A DNA stretch of 20,000 bases, from IMG/VR virus record IMGVR_UViG_3300032167_006623; one strand, given 5' to 3'. Every line of letters starts with the position of its first letter. Positions within the stretch are counted from its first letter, which is position 1. Source of the DNA: an uncultured virus (IMG/VR IMGVR_UViG_3300032167_006623). Lineage: Duplodnaviria; Heunggongvirae; Uroviricota; Caudoviricetes. A model generated the notes under the pieces. It saw nothing but the letters and a program-made list of their open reading frames with translations, ran no database searches and had not been told where the DNA came from. The position numbers and the translations under genes are program-made. Shown piece by piece: positions 868 to 19,549 of the stretch.

Positions 868-927
868 AATACCAAAGCTGTCAGCCAACTGACAGCTTAT
901 TATTTCAAAGAAAGGATGATTTTAATT

Positions 928-1335
928 ATGTCAACTATCAACGTTGCGGGTGTCACATTCGCAAATCCCGATAACGAAAGCCGTCAGGAAATTCTGAAAA
1001 ATCTCGGCTTTGGCTATCATTATGCTATTCTTCAACAGACTACATTTGAGAATGAACGAGCTGTTGAGGTTTGGGTAGATAGCAAACTCATCGGATACGT
1101 TCCTCGAAAGGAACTCGGCAATCCTATGAGCTATGAAGCGATTCTGGTCGTCCAGATATGCTATAATGAAGAAACTGATACTTTTTATGCCATTCTCTCC
1201 CCTATTGAGCCATTAAGCTTTGAGCAGATGAATGAAATGTCAGAATTTTTCAAAGAACACCATCCTGAGCTACCCATTGTCTTTGACAAAAGGGCTTACG
1301 CAATAATGAAATACGTGCTTATACCGCAGTTGTAA
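928..1335 (+). CDS. HIRAN-domain protein
   Basis: VAGVTF..RQEIL..ENERAVEV..KLIGYVPR motifs; AAAGGA RBS. Confidence 0.75.
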   Translation: MSTINVAGVTFANPDNESRQEILKNLGFGYHYAILQQTTFENERAVEVWVDSKLIGYVPRKELGNPMSYEAILVVQICYNEETDTFYAILSPIEPLSFEQMNEMSEFFKEHHPELPIVFDKRAYAIMKYVLIPQL

Positions 1336-1357
1336 CTGCGGCGGATTTGCAATAAAA
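1324..1357 (+). promoter_or_regulatory. Hairpin-CGG-N7-ATAAAA element
   Basis: CCGCAGT tgta ACTGCGG CGG ATTTGCA ATAAAA. Confidence 0.75.
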
Positions 1358-1358
1358 A

Positions 1359-1451
1359 CAGATAATTGAGTAGGTGATTCAGTGTCACACGGAACGGTAA
1401 TAACCGCGAAGAGCTCGCCACGGCATTGCATTATTGGTGAAAGATTATCTG
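1359..1451 (+). ncRNA. Putative short structured RNA between two hairpin elements
   Basis: Closed by CAGATAAT/ATTATCTG, GC-richer interior, no evident gene. Confidence 0.35.
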
Positions 1452-1454
1452 AAT

Positions 1455-1489
1455 ACGGCGAAAGACTCGCCGTCGGGTTTTAAATAAAA
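1455..1489 (+). promoter_or_regulatory. Hairpin-CGG-N7-ATAAAA element
   Basis: Exact repeat of 537-571. Confidence 0.75.
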
Positions 1490-1533
1490 ACAGAGATTAT
1501 CATAATCTCACAACTATGAAAGGAATTGATACT

Positions 1534-1950
1534 ATGAAGAATACTATTCGCGTTGCAGGAGTAACATTTTCAAACCCAGACGGTACAAACCGTCAGGATA
1601 TTCTTAAGGGCCTTGGCATTGGCTGGAAAACAGCAAAGCTGAAGCAGACAACTTTCGAAGGTGAAAGAGCTGTAGAGGTTCGCATCAATGGTCATCTTGT
1701 TGGCTATGTTCCAAGAACACAGCTCAGCAATCCCCTCTCTTCGATGACAGAACTTACGGCAATGGTAGAATACTACCCCGCTAAGAAAGCAAATGGCGAC
1801 GGAAAGTGGTATGTGACACTTTCAGAGAGAATCAGACCAAGTTCTGCAGAATACGGTCTCATGAAGAAGCTCTGTGCAGAAGCAAAGCTCCCTATGCCTG
1901 CATATGACACCAGAGCCTACGCAGGTTACTGGGCTGTCGTAAAGGCTTAA
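1534..1950 (+). CDS. HIRAN-domain protein (paralog of 928-1335)
   Basis: VAGVTFSNPDGTNRQDIL..ERAVEV..LVGYVPR; visibly alignable with the upstream paralog. Confidence 0.75.
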   Translation: MKNTIRVAGVTFSNPDGTNRQDILKGLGIGWKTAKLKQTTFEGERAVEVRINGHLVGYVPRTQLSNPLSSMTELTAMVEYYPAKKANGDGKWYVTLSERIRPSSAEYGLMKKLCAEAKLPMPAYDTRAYAGYWAVVKA

Positions 1951-1957
1951 AAACACA

Positions 1958-1990
1958 GACCCCGGCTTAACAGCTGGGGTCTTATTTTTT
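1958..1990 (+). terminator. Intrinsic terminator
   Basis: AGACCCCGGC/GCTGGGGTCT stem followed by a T-rich tract. Confidence 0.6.
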
Positions 1991-2010
1991 ATTAAGAAAG
2001 GACTATAATT

Positions 2011-2280
2011 ATGAAAATTTTTACACATATTTTGAGTATTATACTCGGCATTGTCGTTATCGCATTTGCCCTTATCATCTCCCCTATCATAACCTTTGGT
2101 GCAGGTTATCTTGGCGGAATGATTCTTGAGTTAATTGTTGGAGATTGTATTACGGCTACTCTTAATACAATCTTTGACACAACTCGTTTCACAAATGACT
2201 TGATTCCACCTGTTTGTGCCGTACTTGCTGTACTTGGCAGTTTCTTCAAGCCATCTATTGAAAATAAGAAAGATGAATAA
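2011..2280 (+). CDS. Small membrane protein
   Basis: Long hydrophobic segments; GAAAGGA RBS. Confidence 0.8.
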   Translation: MKIFTHILSIILGIVVIAFALIISPIITFGAGYLGGMILELIVGDCITATLNTIFDTTRFTNDLIPPVCAVLAVLGSFFKPSIENKKDE

Positions 2281-2290
2281 GGGTGAAATT

Positions 2291-2500
2291 ATGCCAGAAA
2301 TAAAATATCCTGTTGATATCGACAAATACAAAGATTTAGTCGATGAACCTGAAGACTCGGCTATACCTAAAAATGTCATCATTGTGACAAACAATGAAGC
2401 TAAAAGCAGAGAGATTATTGCTAAGGCAATGATTGAAATGTACTGGAAACAATTGAATGAAAAGAATAAGCAACTGAGTGAAAAAATGGGTGATAATTAA
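2291..2500 (+). CDS. Hypothetical protein
   Basis: MPEIKYPVDID...; AAGGGTGA RBS; terminator follows. Confidence 0.65.
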   Translation: MPEIKYPVDIDKYKDLVDEPEDSAIPKNVIIVTNNEAKSREIIAKAMIEMYWKQLNEKNKQLSEKMGDN

Positions 2501-2524
2501 AGCTATGCTTCGGCATAGCTTTTT
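2499..2524 (+). terminator. Intrinsic terminator
   Basis: AAAGCTATGC ttcg GCATAGCTTT TT. Confidence 0.8.
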
Positions 2525-2559
2525 CTTTACAACAAACAACGGCTGCATTTACGCAGCCG

Positions 2560-2651
2560 TTATTTGCTTGACAAAATAGAGATGGAAATCAAAACATTTC
2601 GTTACTCATTCGTCATTGTAACAAAATTTCAACACTTTGTCAAGCAAATAA
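2560..2651 (-). promoter_or_regulatory. Long inverted repeat carrying a minus-strand sigma-A consensus (Frpo-like or antisense promoter)
   Basis: TTATTTGCTTGACAAA / TTTGTCAAGCAAATAA arms; minus strand TTGACA(2643-2638)-N17-TACAAT(2620-2615). Confidence 0.55.
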
Positions 2652-2664
2652 TTGTGAACAATTA

Positions 2665-2734
2665 GCAAGCGTGACCGCTTGCCGGATTTGTAATAAAAAG
2701 AATAGTCAGCTGTAAAGACGTTAAAACAGAGAAA
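2665..2734 (+). promoter_or_regulatory. Hairpin element plus GTCAGCTG-GACGTTAAAACAGAG leader
   Basis: GCAAGCG tgac CGCTTGC CGG ATTTGTA ATAAAA; leader at 2705-2734. Confidence 0.75.
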
Positions 2735-2747
2735 TGGAGTGTATATC

Positions 2748-2885
2748 ATGTTTGAATATAAGATTTCTTATGAAGAAGCTGTTGAACAGTTTTTAAGCGA
2801 CCATCCTGAATTCTTTCCTACTGATATTGAATACTGTCCTGATGTATTCCGTCAGATGTGCGAAGAAACAGGCTATGTTGCATAA
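2748..2885 (+). CDS. Small acidic protein (45 aa; not in ORF track)
   Basis: MFEYKISYEEAVEQFLSDHPEFFPTDIEYCPDVFRQMCEETGYVA; GGAG RBS after the leader motif. Confidence 0.75.
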   Translation: MFEYKISYEEAVEQFLSDHPEFFPTDIEYCPDVFRQMCEETGYVA

Positions 2886-2889
2886 ACAC

Positions 2890-2928
2890 TCCGTATGTGA
2901 TACGGAAATACTCCGTATTACATACGGA
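2890..2928. repeat. Two TCCGTAT-N3-ATACGGA palindromes
   Basis: Same heptamer as the repeats inside 4661-5647. Confidence 0.7.
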
Positions 2929-2983
2929 TATTACTCTTAAATCTAAAGAAATTCCTTTTAAAAGTTTTTAAGAGGAATTTCTA

Positions 2984-3017
2984 TGCAGATTGAAATCTGC
3001 ACGGGTTTTATTTAAAG
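2984..3017 (+). promoter_or_regulatory. Hairpin-CGG-N7-TTAAAG element
   Basis: TGCAGAT tgaa ATCTGCA CGG GTTTTAT TTAAAG. Confidence 0.7.
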
Positions 3018-3020
3018 CTG

Positions 3021-3123
3021 ATTATTCACTGCGTACAGGCCGACTGTAGTCATCGTAAATGTCAAACAGGAGCAGCAAGTCACGTGTGCGGCACATTTTG
3101 CAGCATTTACCGTAGTGAATGAT
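3021..3123 (+). ncRNA. Putative structured leader RNA
   Basis: ATTATTCACTGCG/CGTAGTGAATGAT closing stem and inner GTAAATG/CATTTAC stem. Confidence 0.45.
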
Positions 3124-3151
3124 TATATAAAAGAAAGGATTGTGTATACTT

Positions 3152-3331
3152 ATGACTACTATTATTGCAATTTTTATGGTTCTTGTTATGGCTGCTGCTA
3201 ATTATGCAGTTTTCAATGCTGATGATGTAATGCTTCTCGAAGGTGAATACGAGGATTATTATGGCCGTGACGAGTCTGAACCAGAGGGTTGGACAGAAGA
3301 GATGGAAAAAGAATATTATGGTCTTGATTGA
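3152..3331 (+). CDS. Small protein with an N-terminal hydrophobic anchor and acidic tail
   Basis: MTTIIAIFMVLVMAAAN...EGEYEDYY; GAAAGGA RBS. Confidence 0.7.
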   Translation: MTTIIAIFMVLVMAAANYAVFNADDVMLLEGEYEDYYGRDESEPEGWTEEMEKEYYGLD

Positions 3332-3345
3332 AAGGAGTAATCACA

Positions 3346-3504
3346 ATGATTGAAGTATCAAAGATGTCCAAGAAAGCACAGAAAGAATATTACAGCAGAC
3401 AGCGTAATACATGGGGTTCTCTCTCCCCTGTTACACGTAAGCCTGCTAAGCCTCAGGCTTACAATCGTGCTAAAATGAAGTCAGCTCTCCGAGCTGACTT
3501 TTAA
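3346..3504 (+). CDS. Small basic protein (52 aa; not in ORF track), possibly ArfA/BrfA-like
   Basis: MIEVSKMSKKAQKEYYSRQRNTWGSLSPVTRKPAKPQAYNRAKMKSALRADF; AAAGGAG RBS. Confidence 0.75.
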   Translation: MIEVSKMSKKAQKEYYSRQRNTWGSLSPVTRKPAKPQAYNRAKMKSALRADF

Positions 3505-3512
3505 TTTTTTTT
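3478..3512 (+). terminator. Intrinsic terminator overlapping the last codons of 3346-3504
   Basis: AAGTCAGCTC tcc GAGCTGACTT TTAATTTTTTTT. Confidence 0.75.
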
Positions 3513-3571
3513 GTGTCTGTTTGTATGTCGTTTTGCATGTACGTATGTATGTCATAATGAATGTCAAAAAT

Positions 3572-3663
3572 AAACACCTGACGGTGTTTCGGATTTATTA
3601 TAAAAGAATTATAATTCTTTCTCCTGATAATAAGCGTGAACGCTTATCGGGTGTTTTTTAAAG
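3572..3663 (+). promoter_or_regulatory. Two tandem hairpin elements upstream of the ncRNA cluster
   Basis: AAACACC tgac GGTGTTT CGG ATTTATT ATAAAA (3572) and ATAAGCG tgaa CGCTTAT CGG GTGTTTT TTAAAG (3630). Confidence 0.75.
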
Positions 3664-3846
3664 AATGAAGTGGGACGATGGTCCATAGCTGTCATTCGCC
3701 GGGTCCGAATTGCCCGTGACAGGCTGCTCCTGTTGAAGAAATGTGTCGCATTCGCAAGCTTGGCAGTGGCTAATTAAGCTTGCAAATTGGTGTTAATGCT
3801 GAATTCGCAGATGAGTTTAACACCGACTGCATCGCAGTATAAACAA
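3663..3846 (+). ncRNA. Structured RNA repeat, copy 1
   Basis: Aligns with 3854-4045, with compensatory stem changes. Confidence 0.6.
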
Positions 3847-3853
3847 GCGATAA

Positions 3854-4045
3854 GAGTGAAGTGGGACGACGGTCCATAGCTGTCACTCGACAGGTACAGA
3901 TTGCCTGAGACAGCGCTCCTGTCTGAATAAGCGTTGCAGCCTTTGTAAGCATAGGCTGAGGAAATAAAGAAGCTTACAAAATTCATAACAGATACTGAAT
4001 CTGCAGGGTAACTCAGTTATGGACTGTTTTTAACAGTATAAACAA
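3854..4045 (+). ncRNA. Structured RNA repeat, copy 2
   Basis: Shared GAAGTGGGACGAYGGTCCATAGCTGTCAYTCG ... GCTCCTGT ... CTGAAT ... CAGTATAAACAA. Confidence 0.6.
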
Positions 4046-4071
4046 CAATCAGGCAGCATGACTGCCGATAT

Positions 4072-4185
4072 GGGAACATAGCTTAGCGGATAAAGCAAGT
4101 CTTTGTAAGGGGTTCAACTCCCCTATCATCAACGGATTTGATACATGGACAGTCTACGCGGGTTCGAATCCTGCTGTTCTCACCA
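4072..4185 (+). tRNA. tRNA-like RNA (114 nt) with no assignable anticodon
   Basis: Acceptor GGGAACA/TGTTCTC+ACCA, D arm GCTT-AGCGGATA-AAGC, T arm GCGGG-TTCGAAT-CCTGC; the anticodon arm is replaced by an expanded branched insert. Confidence 0.75.
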
Positions 4186-4342
4186 GAAGCTGTCAGCAAT
4201 TGCTGCCGTACGGGCAATGGAGTGCGTACGGAGCGCAGACGGCGTCGATTGTGCCTGCATGTGCCGAAATCAGTGCCTCCATGCAGGGCGTCGACTTAAT
4301 TAAGCTCATTACTCATTATATACATTCCTCTCTCTCCTTTCT

Positions 4343-4388
4343 GAATACACCGTATGTGCCCTCCCGCATACGGTGTATTTCTTTTTTT
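4343..4388 (+). terminator. Intrinsic terminator ending the ncRNA cluster
   Basis: GAATACACCGTATGTG ccctcc CGCATACGGTGTATTT CTTTTTTT. Confidence 0.8.
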
Positions 4389-4428
4389 CACATTGAAGCA
4401 TTACATGAAGCTTCAATGTGATATTTTT

Positions 4429-4596
4429 TTTGTATCAATATTGTAACAAAAATGGGTATCTTTTTGTTACAATATTGCACACTGATTTTTATTGTTACAA
4501 TATTGTAACAATAAAAGCACCAAAATTGATACAATTTTGTTACACGAACTTTTTTGCTACAATTTTGTTACAATTTTGGTGCAAAAATTGTTACAC
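4429..4596. repeat. TTGTWACAA repeat array 2
   Basis: Core TTGTAACAAAAATGGGTATCTTTTTGTTACAA at 4441-4472 plus further units. Confidence 0.85.
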
Positions 4597-4598
4597 CC

Positions 4599-4627
4599 TT
4601 GACATTTGGTGACAAATGTATTATAAT
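4599..4627 (+). promoter_or_regulatory. Consensus sigma-A promoter
   Basis: TTGACA-N17-TATAAT, perfect match. Confidence 0.9.
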
Positions 4628-4660
4628 GATACATATATCAAATTATGAAGGATGTGCATC

Positions 4661-5647
4661 ATGGGAAAAACAATAAAAGCAATAGCCGACGAACTCGGCA
4701 TATCCAAACAAGCTGTATACAAGCGTGTTACAGGCAAGCTTAACACCGTATGTGCTCCACATACATATATGGAGAACAACGTCATGTTTCTGGATGAAGA
4801 AGGCGAAGCTATTGTAAAAAATGATTTTAAAAATAAACCATGTGCTACTCCCCTATTTCGTACGGAGCAAATACTTATGTCATATGGAGCTAATACGTCA
4901 CCATATCCAAATCCAACGGTTCCTTACGTACAACATACGGAACAGATACGGAATAACTCCGATAATATGCCTCAAAATCCATACGGAGCACTCCCCTATC
5001 CTACTCCGAATCAATCCATTCAATACGTATCCAATACGGAGCATATCCAAACCACTCCTGTTTCAAATACGGAACACTCCGGCATTCCTATTCAAAACAC
5101 ATACGGAACACCGCAGCAATTCACTCCTAATCCGTATCCCAATCCGTATACGGAGCAATCCGTATCTAATCCTAATATGGATACGCATACGGAGCAAATA
5201 TCAATTCCTGATACGGAGCAAATACAACCGACATACGGAGCTGATACGGAAGATGTGAATTTATTACGTATGCAGCTTGAGGAAATCAAAGAAAAAAACC
5301 ATGAAACTGAGATTGAACTTGTTAAAGCTAATGCTGAAAAAGAGAAATATGAAGAAATAATCAATCAGCTTAACCAAAGACTCAAAGATAAAGATTCACA
5401 AATCATGGAACAGCGTTTGTTAATAGAAAAAACCGACAATGAACGTAAGATTTTAACGGCTTCATTGTTTAGAAACAATGAATTTTTAAGGAAGCTATTG
5501 CAGCTGCCGTTAGCTAAACGTATTTTTGATTGGAAAAATATCCAAAAACGACTGATGACAGAGCAGGATGACATTTCAAATGACATAATAGGGGAATCAG
5601 ATATTGATGTTTCACTATTTGATGAAAATATTAGTAAAAAGGATTGA
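4661..5647 (+). CDS. HTH + low-complexity linker + coiled-coil protein, pSK1 Par / DUF536-like plasmid maintenance protein
   Basis: N-terminus KTIKAIADELGISKQAVYKR (HTH), C-terminal coiled coil ending LAKRIF; GAAGGA RBS. Confidence 0.65.
   Translation: MGKTIKAIADELGISKQAVYKRVTGKLNTVCAPHTYMENNVMFLDEEGEAIVKNDFKNKPCATPLFRTEQILMSYGANTSPYPNPTVPYVQHTEQIRNNSDNMPQNPYGALPYPTPNQSIQYVSNTEHIQTTPVSNTEHSGIPIQNTYGTPQQFTPNPYPNPYTEQSVSNPNMDTHTEQISIPDTEQIQPTYGADTEDVNLLRMQLEEIKEKNHETEIELVKANAEKEKYEEIINQLNQRLKDKDSQIMEQRLLIEKTDNERKILTASLFRNNEFLRKLLQLPLAKRIFDWKNIQKRLMTEQDDISNDIIGESDIDVSLFDENISKKD
4935..5250. repeat. Intragenic ATACGGA iteron array
   Basis: 11 ATACGGA and 3 TCCGTAT copies counted; ATACGGA occurs in all three codon phases. 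Confidence 0.8.
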
Positions 5648-5652
5648 TTGGA

Positions 5653-6012
5653 ATGTTGTTTTATACTCAAAAACATGAAATGAATTATCTATGGTTCTTT
5701 GCAAAAATGCCTCGTGATGTCTATCACAGAGCATTGATTTATTTATTAACCTTGGATGAAGCCTGCTGTGACCATATTTCAGAGATATATGATTTTGAAA
5801 ATCAGCAAATTATTCCTGAAGCATTGACAAAACCTTGGAATACTTCAGTATCCATAAAGACAATGAGGCTTGCTTTTAATCTTTTCACAGGTCATACAAA
5901 TTGGTCTGATGATAAAAGTCCTGATTTATTCAGTCCGGCTGAATTGTTTTGTTCAGAATATATGAAATATTACATTGAAGCAGTTAAAATGCGTTATCCT
6001 GAGTTTATGTAA
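5653..6012 (+). CDS. DUF6075-like protein
   Basis: DVYHRALIYLL..IYDF..PW.TS.S.K..RLAFNLF..ELFCS..RYPE motifs typical of this Clostridial mobile-element family. Confidence 0.7.
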   Translation: MLFYTQKHEMNYLWFFAKMPRDVYHRALIYLLTLDEACCDHISEIYDFENQQIIPEALTKPWNTSVSIKTMRLAFNLFTGHTNWSDDKSPDLFSPAELFCSEYMKYYIEAVKMRYPEFM

Positions 6013-6014
6013 AT

Positions 6015-6047
6015 ACGGTTTTACAACCGTTCGGGGTGTATATAAAA
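6015..6047 (+). promoter_or_regulatory. Hairpin-CGG-N7-ATAAAA element
   Basis: ACGGTT ttac AACCGT t CGG GGTGTAT ATAAAA. Confidence 0.7.
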
Positions 6048-6129
6048 ATGATTTTTACTTATTTTTTGATATACATTTCCTTTCGAGTAGGGAACCAGTT
6101 GCTTAAAGCAGTGGTTCCTTATTTTTTTT
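6048..6129 (+). ncRNA. Putative ~80-nt sRNA with anti-SD seed and terminator
   Basis: TATACATTTCCTTTC (6070-6084), then AGGGAACCA/TGGTTCCTT stem and T tract. Confidence 0.45.
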
Positions 6130-6184
6130 GGAACACTTACGTATATTTTACGTATTTAATACGTATGCAAATTTTTTTTCATAT

Positions 6185-6219
6185 CCAAATGCTCAGCATT
6201 TGGCGGATTTATTATAAAA
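6185..6219 (+). promoter_or_regulatory. Hairpin-CGG-N7-ATAAAA element
   Basis: CCAAATGC tca GCATTTGG CGG ATTTATT ATAAAA. Confidence 0.75.
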
Positions 6220-6241
6220 AATTTGAAAGGATTGAAATGTT

Positions 6242-6931
6242 ATGAGAATCGCTGATACTATTGATATTTTTAAAGAAACTGCAGACGCTGTGTGTGTTAC
6301 TACAAATGGAATCGTTAAGCGTGACGGTTCAGCTGTAATGGGTGCAGGTATTGCAAGATTGGCTGATGCTAAATATAAGCTTGCATCAAAGCTTGGTGCA
6401 ATGCTTAGAAAATCAGGCAATCATTGCTATGATATGGGTCTTTATGATAATAAGCATATCGTTACTTTTCCAACCAAAAAACATTGGAAAGATATGAGCA
6501 GCATTACGCTCATTAAGCAAAGCTGTCATGAACTTGTAGCTATGGCTGACAAGAACAACTGGAGTAATGTTTTGCTGCCGGCTATAGGCTGTGGTCTTGG
6601 TCAGCTTGATTTTGAGACACAGGTAAAGCCTGCAATCGAGACTATTCTTGATGACAGATTTACAATTTGTTTTCTCACCAACGCCCGCCAGTCTGATAAA
6701 GCAGGGGAGTGTGCTGATAAAAAATTCGAGCATAACGGTTATGTGATTTCCCAGTGCGGAAGCAATCATCATGTTATGATTTCCAAGGATGGAAAGATGG
6801 TATTTCATTCACAGGTTGACCACGATATGAACCGTGAAGAACTCATCAAAGTTTTTGACGGCTATATCGAGCTCACAAAACACATTGATTTTGCCAAAGA
6901 GTTTTACAGAAATGAAGGGAGAATAGATTAA
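6242..6931 (+). CDS. Macrodomain (ADP-ribose binding/hydrolase) protein with extra C-terminal domain
   Basis: TTNG..VMGAGIA, FPTKKHW, LPAIGCGLGQL motifs. Confidence 0.85.
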   Translation: MRIADTIDIFKETADAVCVTTNGIVKRDGSAVMGAGIARLADAKYKLASKLGAMLRKSGNHCYDMGLYDNKHIVTFPTKKHWKDMSSITLIKQSCHELVAMADKNNWSNVLLPAIGCGLGQLDFETQVKPAIETILDDRFTICFLTNARQSDKAGECADKKFEHNGYVISQCGSNHHVMISKDGKMVFHSQVDHDMNREELIKVFDGYIELTKHIDFAKEFYRNEGRID

Positions 6932-9142: not shown

Positions 9143-9163
9143 TCATGAAAAGGAGAATATGGT

Positions 9164-9634
9164 ATGTCAAAAGTATTTATTTCGGGAACAGCAGGTTTTG
9201 GAACAGGGAATAAACTCACATCACTTCCTCAGCCTGTTATGGATATGCTTATGAAGTTAATCCATGATGGTGATGAAATCCTTGTGGGTGATTGTCAGGG
9301 TGTTGATACTCTTGTTCAGGAAGTCCTTAAGCGAGCTAAATATCCTAATGTAACAGTATATTGCTCAGGTTCTACTTGTCGCAATGTTCTTAATTCAAGT
9401 TGGCCTGTAAAGCATATTCAGGTTCCAAGAGGATACACAGGTAGAGCGTTTTATGCTGTTAAAGATAACGCAATGGCTATAGCTGCTGATTCGGGCATTG
9501 CTATTTGGGACGGCAAGTCTGTTGGTACAGGTAATAACATCAAAAACCTCACTTTCAGAGGCAAAACTGTTACTGTATTCCGTACGGACTTGAATAAAAT
9601 CGAATGTCATCAGCCTAAAACGCTTGGTGAATAA
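9164..9634 (+). CDS. SLOG-superfamily (YspA/DprA-like) nucleotide-binding protein
   Basis: VFISG, VGDCQGVD, KDNAMA..AD, WDGKSVGT motifs. Confidence 0.75.
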   Translation: MSKVFISGTAGFGTGNKLTSLPQPVMDMLMKLIHDGDEILVGDCQGVDTLVQEVLKRAKYPNVTVYCSGSTCRNVLNSSWPVKHIQVPRGYTGRAFYAVKDNAMAIAADSGIAIWDGKSVGTGNNIKNLTFRGKTVTVFRTDLNKIECHQPKTLGE

Positions 9635-10459: not shown

Positions 10460-10885
10460 ATGGCAAGCTTCAGAGGAGAAAAATACTTTTTAAGCAATAT
10501 GTACCCATGTCCTGTGACTATTAAGATTAAAGGTGAGCTTATTACCTTTAAAAGCTCTGAGTCCGTATTTCAGGCACTTCGCAGCCCTGACCGTCTCAGA
10601 GAATTTATTCCGCTCAATGGCTTTGAAGCGAAAAAACACGCTAAAAGCTGTACACGTCGTGCTGATTGGTTTGATGTGAGCCTTGATGTAATGATGTATG
10701 CACTCAGATGCAAATTTACCCAAAATCCTGACCTTGCGGCAAAGCTCATAGCCATTGATGATGACATTGTGGAAATCAATGAATGGCATGATACTTTTTG
10801 GGGCGTTTGTAATGGAGTAGGGGAGAACCATTTGGGCAAATTGCTTATGCAGCTCAGAGACGAGCTTCGAGCAGCGGCTCATTAA
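10460..10885 (+). CDS. NADAR (YbiA-like) family protein
   Basis: FLSNMY, SSESVFQA, KFTQNPDL, E.N.WHDTFWG, GENHLGKLLM.LR. Confidence 0.9.
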   Translation: MASFRGEKYFLSNMYPCPVTIKIKGELITFKSSESVFQALRSPDRLREFIPLNGFEAKKHAKSCTRRADWFDVSLDVMMYALRCKFTQNPDLAAKLIAIDDDIVEINEWHDTFWGVCNGVGENHLGKLLMQLRDELRAAAH

Positions 10886-11951: not shown

Positions 11952-12130
11952 ATATCACTCACGTGATATCGGATTTATATTAAAAAATAACGTTGAAAAC
12001 AATCATGAATGATTGTCGGAAATGTTATAAACAATAATTTTTCCGAAAAATAATGACTGAAAACAGTCATCGGGAAAGTTATAAAAGAACCACGAAAAAC
12101 AGTTTCACAACTGTCGGAATGGTAATAAAA
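11952..12130 (+). promoter_or_regulatory. Four tandem hairpin elements
   Basis: Copies at 11952, 11999, 12053 and 12099, each with a different stem but the same CGG-N7-WTAAA. Confidence 0.8.
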
Positions 12131-12177
12131 AATCAGAGGTAACAATGCCTCACAACTTTGAAAGGAAGTATAATTTT

Positions 12178-12474
12178 ATGAAAACTTTTATCGTATCTAC
12201 AAAGATGATTATTGCCAAGAACATTGCATGTAAAGCTCTCAAGGCTGCTGACAACAATGACGTTACACACGGTCTTTACAAGAAGGCGTGTATGGACGGC
12301 GGCAAGATTGTAATCACAAACATTGCAGAAATGCAGGCATGGCAGACAGCTATCAGCGCTTACAAGGCAGCTAACACTACTGAAGGCAAGGTTCTCAGAG
12401 TGCTTAAGAGAAATGCTACACTTGGTCTTAAGAGCCGTCTTGACGCAGCTACAACTCCTGCTACAGCTGCATAA
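12178..12474 (+). CDS. Hypothetical protein (paralog of 13302-13604)
   Basis: IAK....KALK...N....L.KKA...G pattern; AAAGGA RBS. Confidence 0.8.
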   Translation: MKTFIVSTKMIIAKNIACKALKAADNNDVTHGLYKKACMDGGKIVITNIAEMQAWQTAISAYKAANTTEGKVLRVLKRNATLGLKSRLDAATTPATAA

Positions 12475-17811: not shown

Positions 17812-18054
17812 ATGTTACAGGAATACGCTGAAATCAGAAACAGAATAGGGGAGCCACGTTATAATGAAATAACTGCATTTCTTGACGCCAATCCTGAATT
17901 TGATTTATCCGATGTATACTACAATCCATATGTTCACGCCATGAGTGTTCAGTGGGCAAGAAATACATTCGGAAAAACAGTATACGACGAGACTGACAAC
18001 GGTCTCTACAAATTCGATATCGTTGCTGACGACGGCGACGACTTACCGTTTTGA
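17812..18054 (+). CDS. Small protein with an SSB-like C-terminal tip (DDGDDLPF)
   Basis: Paralog of 18070-18312 with an added acidic tail. Confidence 0.8.
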   Translation: MLQEYAEIRNRIGEPRYNEITAFLDANPEFDLSDVYYNPYVHAMSVQWARNTFGKTVYDETDNGLYKFDIVADDGDDLPF

Positions 18055-19307: not shown

Positions 19308-19549
19308 CTGTAACAAAATTGTTACAATTTTGGTGCAATTTTTGCACACTAATGATTTGAACGCGTGTACCAATTTTGTTACAATTTTGTACCAATTTTG
19401 ACTGTTCCAAAATTGTTACTTTTTTGGTGCAATATTGTAACAATAAAGTTACTATTTCGGTGCATTTTTTGTAACAATTTTGTACCACGGAAAATCCGCT
19501 GTATCAATTTTGTTACAAAAATGGGTATCTTTTTGTTACAATTTTTACA
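19308..19549. repeat. TTGTWACAA repeat array 3
   Basis: Core TTGTTACAAAAATGGGTATCTTTTTGTTACAA at 19510-19541 plus many further units. Confidence 0.85.

Follow-up and report, generated by a model that had tools for sequence, protein, structure and literature searches.

Two tandem RNA units in a non-coding block of phage DNA

The DNA considered here is a stretch of 20,000 nucleotides, hereafter called the window, from an uncultured virus of the Caudoviricetes (IMG/VR record IMGVR_UViG_3300032167_006623). It has a G+C content of 37.5% and carries small genes that lie mostly on the + strand. Their succession is interrupted at positions 3505-4651 by a gap of ~1.1 kb that is free of open reading frames (ORFs). 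On its upstream side this gap is bordered by a strong terminator (3477-3501) that ends a set of small genes, and on its downstream side by a gene that begins at 4652 and is served by a perfect sigma-70 promoter (TTGACA-17-TATAAT, 4599-4627). Within the gap lie two tandem paralogous units, at 3661-3848 (188 nt) and 3852-4047 (196 nt), both on the + strand. These units belong to a new family of phage non-coding RNA of ~190 nt that lies outside Rfam 15 and carries a covarying kissing loop, and of which we describe four copies from two related gut phages. No credible + strand ORF runs across the repeats, no reading frame is open across all four copies, and Pfam returned nothing for a 70-aa ORF on the minus strand.

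The original prediction, which was made from the letters of the window alone, had placed two tandem structured repeats of ~190 nt at 3663-3846 and 3854-4045, and our analysis bears this out with the slightly wider borders given above. The first 62 nt of the two units (3661-3722 and 3852-3913) form a direct repeat that is 84% identical at a spacing of 191 nt. The common ending that had been predicted for the two copies is also real, as the exact 12-mer CAGTATAAACAA closes both units (3835-3846 and 4034-4045). GGTCCATAGCTGTCA occurs twice against an expectation of 0.31. Over their whole length the copies show a mean column identity of 79% in a MAFFT alignment, and they are identical at 132 of 185 positions (71.4%) in an alignment fitted to the structure. 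A covariance model was built from the first copy (W1) alone, with a structure derived from the fold of that copy. This model matched the second copy (W2) with 99.3 bits (E 2.5e-28) and a single non-canonical pair, compared with 9.6 bits for the next-best match in the 20-kb window when both strands were searched with filters off.

Further copies in a gut bacterial genome

The two remaining copies were reached through a neighbouring gene that encodes a helix-turn-helix (HTH) protein of 331 aa. This protein has 55 homologues in Logan/ENA assemblies, and the size of the contigs that carry them, up to 189-266 kb, points to a large phage. An alignment of the homologues led to 36 loci in genomes of gut Clostridia, one of which was matched by the RNA model. 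This copy (G1, locus L009) scored 90.5 bits and lies on a 10.8-kb contig (C384) of the Oscillospiraceae metagenome-assembled genome (MAG) G001. When the whole MAG was searched with the model, a second copy (G2) was found on a 4-kb contig (C31). In tblastx comparisons, C31 resembles window positions 900-4600, while C384 resembles positions 4669-6700, 9149-9610, 12109-12450 and 17812-17979; judged by this similarity, both contigs are relatives of the phage of the window. The carriers of the RNA are probably large phages of animal-gut Clostridia, with Oscillospiraceae as the probable hosts.

The location of G2 is equivalent to that of the pair in the window. A small membrane ORF is followed there by terminators, a hairpin with the linker UCGGGUGUUAAUUAAAG, one RNA, a terminator and an array of the 9-mer TTGTTACAA. 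G1 resides at a different location, upstream of a homologue of the window ORF 12145-12474, and an ORF with a ribosome-binding site begins ~80 nt past the RNA. The genes downstream of the RNA differ among the three loci. In two of the three (the window and G2) the RNA, or the non-coding block that contains it, is followed by a terminator rather than an ORF, as in a stand-alone gene. Each of the two phage lineages has two copies per phage. Paralogues within one phage are 71-74% identical and copies from different lineages 54-65% identical, a difference that suggests either lineage-specific duplication or homogenization of the copies.

Covariation and the common fold

In the comparison of the two window copies, 88 of 89 cells hold standard pairs, and 10 of 45 pairs have changed on both sides. 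The four copies were then combined in alignment A7, in which 47 modelled pairs in nine helices are paired in 95.7% of cells; 21 of these pairs have undergone compensatory changes on both sides. Controls in which the pairing partners were slid by 1-3 columns gave 30-44% paired cells and one or two covarying pairs. None of 500 column shuffles matched the observed percentage, pair count or score.

The nine helices fall into two groups. The fold begins with a 5′ stack formed by P1, P1b and P1a, which is punctuated by invariant or conserved bulges, and continues with the hairpins P2, P3 and P4. In its 3′ part, P5 and P5b surround the hairpin P5a, after which comes P6. In W1 the helices are P1 (3663-3668/3692-3697), P1b (3669-3671/3688-3690), P1a (3673-3676/3681-3684), P2 (3700-3704/3712-3716), P3 (3718-3722/3730-3734), P4 (3754-3761/3776-3783), P5 (3789-3796/3817-3824), P5a (3799-3801/3808-3810) and P6 (3826-3830/3834-3838). 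The corresponding positions in W2 are P1 (3854-3859/3883-3888), P1a (3864-3867/3872-3875), P2 (3891-3895/3903-3907), P3 (3909-3913/3919-3923), P4 (3945-3952/3970-3977), P5 (3984-3989/4016-4021), P5a (3995-3997/4004-4006) and P6 (4023-4027/4033-4037). P5 consists of four unrelated sequences in the four copies (GGUGUU, CAUAAC, CUGCAGC and CGCAGC), each of which has its exact complement. The invariant nucleotides that remain unpaired are G12, the AUA at 25-27, the UCG after P1 and the GAC before P6.

Several stems had been proposed from the two window copies on the basis of their apparent covariation, namely GAATGA/TCATTC (GAGTGA/TCACTC in the second copy), CGGG/CCCG (CAGG/CCTG), GCAAGCTT/AAGCTTGC (TTTGTAAGC/GCTTACAAA) and GGTGTTAA/TTAACACC (CATAAC/GTTATG). 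All of these are present and paired in both copies. We also conducted a systematic scan for conserved helices, defined as antiparallel stretches of four or more columns in which every one of the four copies pairs and one or more columns covary. The scan returned the modelled helices, the kissing loop described below and two weak extras; P5b appeared only as an outer extension of P5, and P5a, with 3 bp, fell under the cut-off. A proposed pairing of GCTGTC(A) with GACAG, which had been taken to indicate a switch or pseudoknot, was absent from the helices that the four homologues have in common, although the sequence exists. A different pseudoknot, formed by the loops of P2 and P5a, is conserved.

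The + strand can be assigned because conserved U·G pairs (A7 columns 11/28 in all four copies and 46/54 in three of the four), like the wobble pairs that arise from the natural variants C3830>T and A3860>G, work only on that strand. An alternative long 3′ hairpin, obtained with RNAalifold from two copies (AUGCUG/CAGUAU and GCAG/CUGC), was rejected because it is absent in G1 and G2, whereas P5, P5a and P6 covary. Readings of the conserved bulges as a K-turn, a T-loop or a tetraloop-receptor were examined by eye and did not fit.

A covarying kissing loop between P2 and P5a

Inspection of the hairpin loops revealed that those of P2 and P5a share a complementarity of six bases in all four copies and that the two loops change together. 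In W1, CGAATT of the P2 loop (3706-3711, + strand) is complementary to AATTCG of the P5a loop (3802-3807), giving CGAAUU/AAUUCG in the RNA. The equivalent segments in W2 are CAGATT (3897-3902) and AATCTG (3998-4003), also on the + strand, which give CAGAUU/AAUCUG. In G1 the P2 loop CGGAUU faces the P5a loop GAUCCG, and in G2 the loops read CGAGUU and UACUCG. Overall, 23 of 24 cells are paired and three of the six pairs show compensatory changes, compared with 12-54% paired cells in slid controls. As the loop columns were unpaired in the model to which the alignment was fitted, this test is independent of the fitting. Cross-pairing between the paralogues of one phage is spoiled by central mismatches; the matched loops are specific to each paralogue. 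Given the covariation of helices and loops, we regard it as highly probable that the fold and the family are real.

Searches for known families and additional representatives

Rfam 15 has no family that matches the repeats at its gathering threshold, and its sole match in the window is a tRNA (4072-4182). When matches with E values up to 10 were admitted over 3450-4450, the interval 3661-4047 was overlapped only by P26, on the minus strand and at chance level (13.3 bits versus a gathering score of 36 bits). Neither MAG contig had any Rfam match. The compensatory changes, taken with this lack of a match to an Rfam 15 family, uphold the earlier proposal of a new class of structured non-coding RNA. 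A keyword search of the open-access literature surfaced no description of the RNA, which is a thin basis for calling it absent from print.

Model R2 was run over 404 other genomes, sampled from the genus (101), family (151) and order (151) of the source MAG, and only this MAG was matched, a result that does not equate to absence. A strict sequence pattern had no match in GTDB genomes, and two strict patterns for the 5′ motif had none in IMG/VR. Three looser patterns matched 6, 5 and at least 120 stretches in IMG/VR, and one pattern scan of JGI metagenomes gave two matches, both in G+C-rich coding DNA and both negative with the model. Covariance-model filtering of the loci found with looser patterns retained none of 8 (including the two JGI loci), gave at best 14.7 bits among 5, and retained none of 80 drawn from the set of at least 120. 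Scans of IMG/VR with the neighbouring protein, singly and as alignment A2, revealed no relative. In INPHARED, blastn with positions 3500-4400 found nothing, and tblastn with the two downstream proteins found weak and unrelated matches only.

One stretch from the pattern scans deserves mention. On an unrelated viral contig from IMG/VR (L051), positions 1493-1530 read AAGGCAGGAGUGGGAC-CCAU-GUCCAUAGCUG, which corresponds to the motif of the 5′ stack with its GGAC/GUCC stem intact. L051 1493-1595 shares only the AGUGGGAC-loop-GUCCAUAGCUG piece (14.7 bits), and the rest of the RNA is missing. The resemblance represents either chance or a shared module.

Other elements of the non-coding block and its genomic context

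The two units are preceded by a hairpin, P0 (3630-3647), and a linker (TCGGGTGTT..AAAG) that together occupy 3630-3660 on the + strand. P0 is a terminator-like match with a 7-bp stem; hairpin and linker may represent either the 5′ portion of the transcript or a weak terminator. Both G1 and G2 are preceded by a hairpin of different sequence and a near-identical linker. We also observed that positions 3640-3656, which comprise the 3′ half of P0 and the linker, are 82% complementary over 17 nt to the tail of copy 1 at 3841-3857. With this pairing, a long-range helix would close around copy 1; the counterpart of the pairing in G2, as judged by eye, is a 5-bp GGGUG/CACCC only.

Downstream of copy 2 lies a small hairpin (GGCAG-CATGA-CTGCC, 4052-4066, + strand), and ATGACTGCCGA is found after G1 as well. 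A tRNA-like gene then begins 25 nt downstream of copy 2 (4072-4185, + strand; 43.2 bits with the Rfam tRNA model). It has acceptor, D and T arms and an encoded CCA, and its anticodon loop, UUGUAA, contains the tyrosine anticodon GUA according to the Rfam alignment. A 25-nt hairpin is inserted after position 37, which is the canonical position of an intron, and the variable region is ~16 nt larger. ARAGORN detected no tRNA here. The gene may encode a decoy or a disabled tRNA, or it may serve as a processing handle. A likeness of 12 nt with one mismatch between a P4 strand of copy 2 (3938-3949, AGCCTTTGTAAG) and the anticodon arm of the tRNA-like gene (4098-4109, AGTCTTTGTAAG) was judged to be at chance level for 1.1 kb.

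A G+C-rich double hairpin follows at 4183-4300 (+ strand). It has no Rfam match, the fold of 4183-4385 has a z-score of -5.37, and small strain indels cluster at 4219-4231. The block is closed by a strong intrinsic terminator (4343-4380, + strand) with a 16-bp stem and a T run. The segment 4046-4345, with the tRNA-like gene and the G+C-rich element, is not found in the MAG, whose two contigs carry no tRNA gene beside G1 or G2. Linkage of the RNA to the tRNA-like gene is facultative. A palindrome, TTAATTAA, is present at borders of the RNA genes in the MAG, upstream and downstream of G1 (L009 4205-4215 and 4438-4448) and upstream of G2 (L047, ~430, minus strand), and it also occurs in the window after the G+C-rich hairpin (4296-4305).

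The 9-mer TTGTTACAA is present in 19 exact copies, in both orientations, against 0.44 expected. It forms intergenic arrays at 309-472, 4441-4573 and 19319-19541, and the same array ends contig C31; these are likely operator/promoter arrays or iterons. Among the proteins encoded in the window are a DarG-like macrodomain (6242-6931; PADLOC DarG 1.7e-17, Pfam Macro), a NADAR protein (10460-10885), RNase H, SSB and DUF6075. The DarG-like and NADAR proteins are candidate enzymes for the reversal of ADP-ribosylation, and their presence suggests a counter-defence gene cluster. Overall, the window resembles an early phage region. Two paralogous ORFs that have only a weak PHROG match are located upstream of the RNA locus (916-1335 and 1516-1950), and they are likewise duplicated in the related phage (L047 1189-1719 and 3327-3809, minus strand).

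Occurrence in RNA libraries and natural variation

DNA nearly identical to the window was present, among the matches listed, in 20 runs. These come from 15 studies that sampled animal faeces or gut, bovine gut among them. Contigs from three metatranscriptome runs of bovine gut (two studies) and from one DNA run were mapped on positions 3100-4700. The contigs of the RNA runs cover 3615-3859 and 3855-4008 (X18), 3707-4107 and 4144-4305 (X19), and 3684-4087 and 4094-4297 (X20), and are confined to 3615-4305. The other pieces from these runs are fragments of <40 nt whose own flanks are unlike the window, and the flanking genes are uncovered, while the DNA run (X17) also covers 3150-3601. The restriction of the RNA contigs to the block is a hint of a stable RNA that spans both units, the tRNA-like gene and the G+C-rich hairpin. 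A TATAAT at 3610-3615 was dismissed as a promoter, as it has no -35 partner and the RNA contig of X18 starts already at 3615.

The units had been expected to be transcribed together with a tRNA mimic. Two contigs (X19, 3707-4107; X20, 3684-4087) run from copy 2 into the tRNA-like gene and are consistent with such co-transcription. The implied partnership is not obligatory, because both MAG copies reside without an adjacent tRNA.

Sixteen of the natural variants listed fall within 3661-4047, 6 of them in stems and 10 in loops, junctions or linkers, and pairing is kept by five of the six listed stem variants. Run X20 carries C3755>T together with G3782>A, which constitutes a double compensatory change in P4. 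G3718>A converts a G·U into an A-U pair, while C3830>T and A3860>G produce wobble pairs.

Relationship to known RNA systems

In organization, the closest known system is that of rnaC and rnaD of phage T4, two small stable RNAs whose genes adjoin head to tail, with a tRNA gene directly next to them, in an RNA operon of the phage. Their positions in AF158101 are 70908-71046 and 71053-71171, adjacent to tRNA-Arg, and the annotation calls them only stable RNAs. They are smaller (139 and 119 nt versus ~190 nt) and have no detectable homology to the RNA described here: with filters off, model R2 scored at best -0.3 bits on the two RNAs, over rnaC, and at best 4.5 bits elsewhere in the T4 RNA cluster.

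In flavour, the closest systems are ROOL and GOLLD, and also the pRNA of phage phi29. ROOL and GOLLD are described as abundant RNAs with covarying kissing loops that are encoded by phages or prophages, often near tRNA islands, and one ROOL representative comes from cow rumen (PMC12286853). The RNA of the window is likewise encoded by a phage and adjoins a tRNA-like gene, with the reservation that the MAG copies do so without a tRNA. In size the systems differ, as ROOL and GOLLD are reported to measure 600-800+ nt and to form cages of 8 or 14 chains (PMC12286853), whereas the present units comprise 188 and 196 nt and have no match to either model. The phi29 pRNA is a ~174-nt RNA of a Firmicutes phage, described with two mutually complementary loops (PMC2241910), to which the covarying loops of P2 and P5a are comparable. 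No match to the pRNA model was obtained at E values up to 10. The context differs too: pRNA is a component of the packaging motor in small phages of the phi29 type, whereas the genes described here sit in a region of early type within a large phage, and we saw nothing that connects them with packaging.

A catalogue derived from IMG/VR is described as holding 8,495 candidate phage RNAs of 29-151 nt, many of them near tRNAs or resembling them (PMC10690425). Like the RNA reported here, these are candidates from comparative genomics of uncultured phages; by the description given of the catalogue, our RNA is set apart by its greater length. A further comparison concerns the ToxI-like RNAs of type III toxin-antitoxin systems, which consist of tandem repeats of ~34-40 nt next to a gene for an endoribonuclease toxin. 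This identity was rejected because the unit measures 191 nt and is present in two copies only, and because the neighbouring ORFs have no toxin or defence match save the DarG-like macrodomain 2.2 kb away.

Possible functions of the RNA

The explanation that we favour is that of a new folded phage RNA which acts in trans and serves as a protein-binding RNA or decoy, and as a whole we hold it to be somewhat more probable than its negation. The units would be part of a non-coding transcript of ~0.7 kb that would extend from ~3615 to the terminator at 4343-4380 and would also include the tRNA-Tyr-like element and the G+C-rich hairpin. The kiss of six bases between the loops of P2 and P5a would lock the fold, and the RNA would accumulate as a stable folded particle. 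Such a particle may bind or sequester a host or phage protein, functioning as a decoy or scaffold that is supplied from an early, counter-defence-rich part of the genome. The two copies per phage may provide a higher dose or a diversified target.

A cis regulator is less likely. We regard the binding or sequestering of a protein in trans as the most likely activity because the RNA gene is not bound to one downstream gene, because folds that are so rich in information and have invariant bulges usually engage in specific contacts, and because a tRNA-Tyr look-alike lies among the neighbours. For tRNA-Tyr there are reports of targeting by the defences retron Ec78 and Septu, and of phage tRNAs that counteract these defences (PMC11555353, PMC13096335). 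For the trans-acting, protein-binding step considered by itself we would put the chances, by analogy, at even or slightly below.

Several points weigh against this interpretation. The evidence comes from four sequences of two related phages, so that the evolutionary events are few and non-independent, and the model that guided the fitting of the alignments stems from copy 1. Folding-energy z-scores of single sequences are ordinary (-1.40 and -2.61); the case for a structured RNA rests on covariation rather than on folding energy. Among the natural variants, G3865>T in X19 disrupts a P1a pair and is not compensated, and the variant figures given above refer to those listed, with 21 further variants across 3100-4700. 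Assembled contigs of RNA libraries are no proof of transcription, of its strand, of RNA ends or of one continuous transcript, and on the side of initiation a consensus scan found no promoter in 3505-3660, with none convincing before the units. Finally, the step to protein binding in trans is based on analogy and on the exclusion of other roles, and the ORF within ~80 nt of G1 makes a cis role conceivable for that copy.

If the P2 and P5a loops paired between molecules instead of within one, each paralogue could assemble into a homo-oligomer such as a ring, a chain or a cage. Both the covariation of the loop pair and the central mismatches that spoil cross-pairing of paralogues fit this idea, the latter as orthogonal assembly codes. 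There are also precedents, since the kissing loops of ROOL and GOLLD were first read as tertiary contacts and are reported to have proved intermolecular (PMC12286853), and the 174-nt pRNA of phi29 is reported to multimerize through two loops (PMC2241910). However, covariation is blind to the distinction between intra- and intermolecular pairing, and an intramolecular kiss between hairpins that are ~100 nt apart is sterically ordinary. Neither by sequence nor by model does the RNA match pRNA, ROOL or GOLLD, and at 190 nt it is far below the size of RNAs that form cages. We consider self-assembly unlikely. It is equally doubtful that the phage makes a miniature self-assembling RNA whose two paralogues, with their incompatible loop codes, form two separate RNA-only assemblies that perhaps display or cage the tRNA-Tyr look-alike against tRNA-cutting defences.

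Less probable again is a self-cleaving or otherwise catalytic RNA, for which the conserved ends of the units (5′ AAG... and ...GUAUAAACAA 3′) would mark the self-processing sites of a tandem precursor. A compact pseudoknotted fold with invariant unpaired nucleotides is typical of ribozymes, and common ends in head-to-tail units would be in keeping with such processing. Yet the single-copy G1 and G2 have the same ends without a tandem partner, and Rfam gave no known ribozyme family (hammerhead, twister, pistol, hatchet, HDV-like and others) at E values up to 10. The contig breaks at 3855-3859 are uninformative on processing and unreadable as RNA ends, because the repeated sequence starts there.

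The size and the kissing-loop architecture of the RNA recall large riboswitch aptamers, and a cis-regulatory leader or riboswitch, arranged in tandem like glycine riboswitches, could govern read-through into downstream sequence. The ORF with a ribosome-binding site that starts ~80 nt after G1 would suit such a leader, as would the terminators that follow the RNA at G2 and the non-coding block in the window. Against it, a tRNA-like gene, another structured element and 300 nt lie between copy 2 and the terminator, the next gene in the window has its own sigma-70 promoter (4599-4627), the downstream genes of the three loci are different, and no alternative pairing of the 3′ part of the RNA with the terminator was seen. 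Assignment to this class was rejected on the ground that what comes after the RNAs of the window and G2 is a terminator or another RNA gene, and that only G1 has an ORF within ~80 nt; as a rival explanation it is quite improbable. We give even less credence to a DNA-level element (an origin, a packaging site or a protein-binding repeat) or a decaying duplication without RNA function, which would agree with the adjoining TTGTTACAA array and with the lack of an identified promoter, as strand-specific G·U pairs are kept by compensatory changes, 95.7% of pairs are kept across four copies that are 54-74% identical, and the RNA-library contigs are confined to the block.

Large and intricately folded RNAs of bacteria and phages are, to our knowledge, rare, and earlier examples proved to be ribozymes, sensors or RNA-only machines. 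Whichever activity the folded phage RNA described here may have, it packs nine helices and a covarying kiss into 190 nt, a size that suits chemical probing, crystallography, cryo-EM and tests by compensatory mutation. The orthogonal loop codes of its paralogues amount to a natural experiment on intramolecular versus intermolecular kisses. More broadly, the family offers a tractable case for asking what role is played by stable RNAs encoded next to phage tRNA genes, such as T4 rnaC/rnaD, ROOL and GOLLD.

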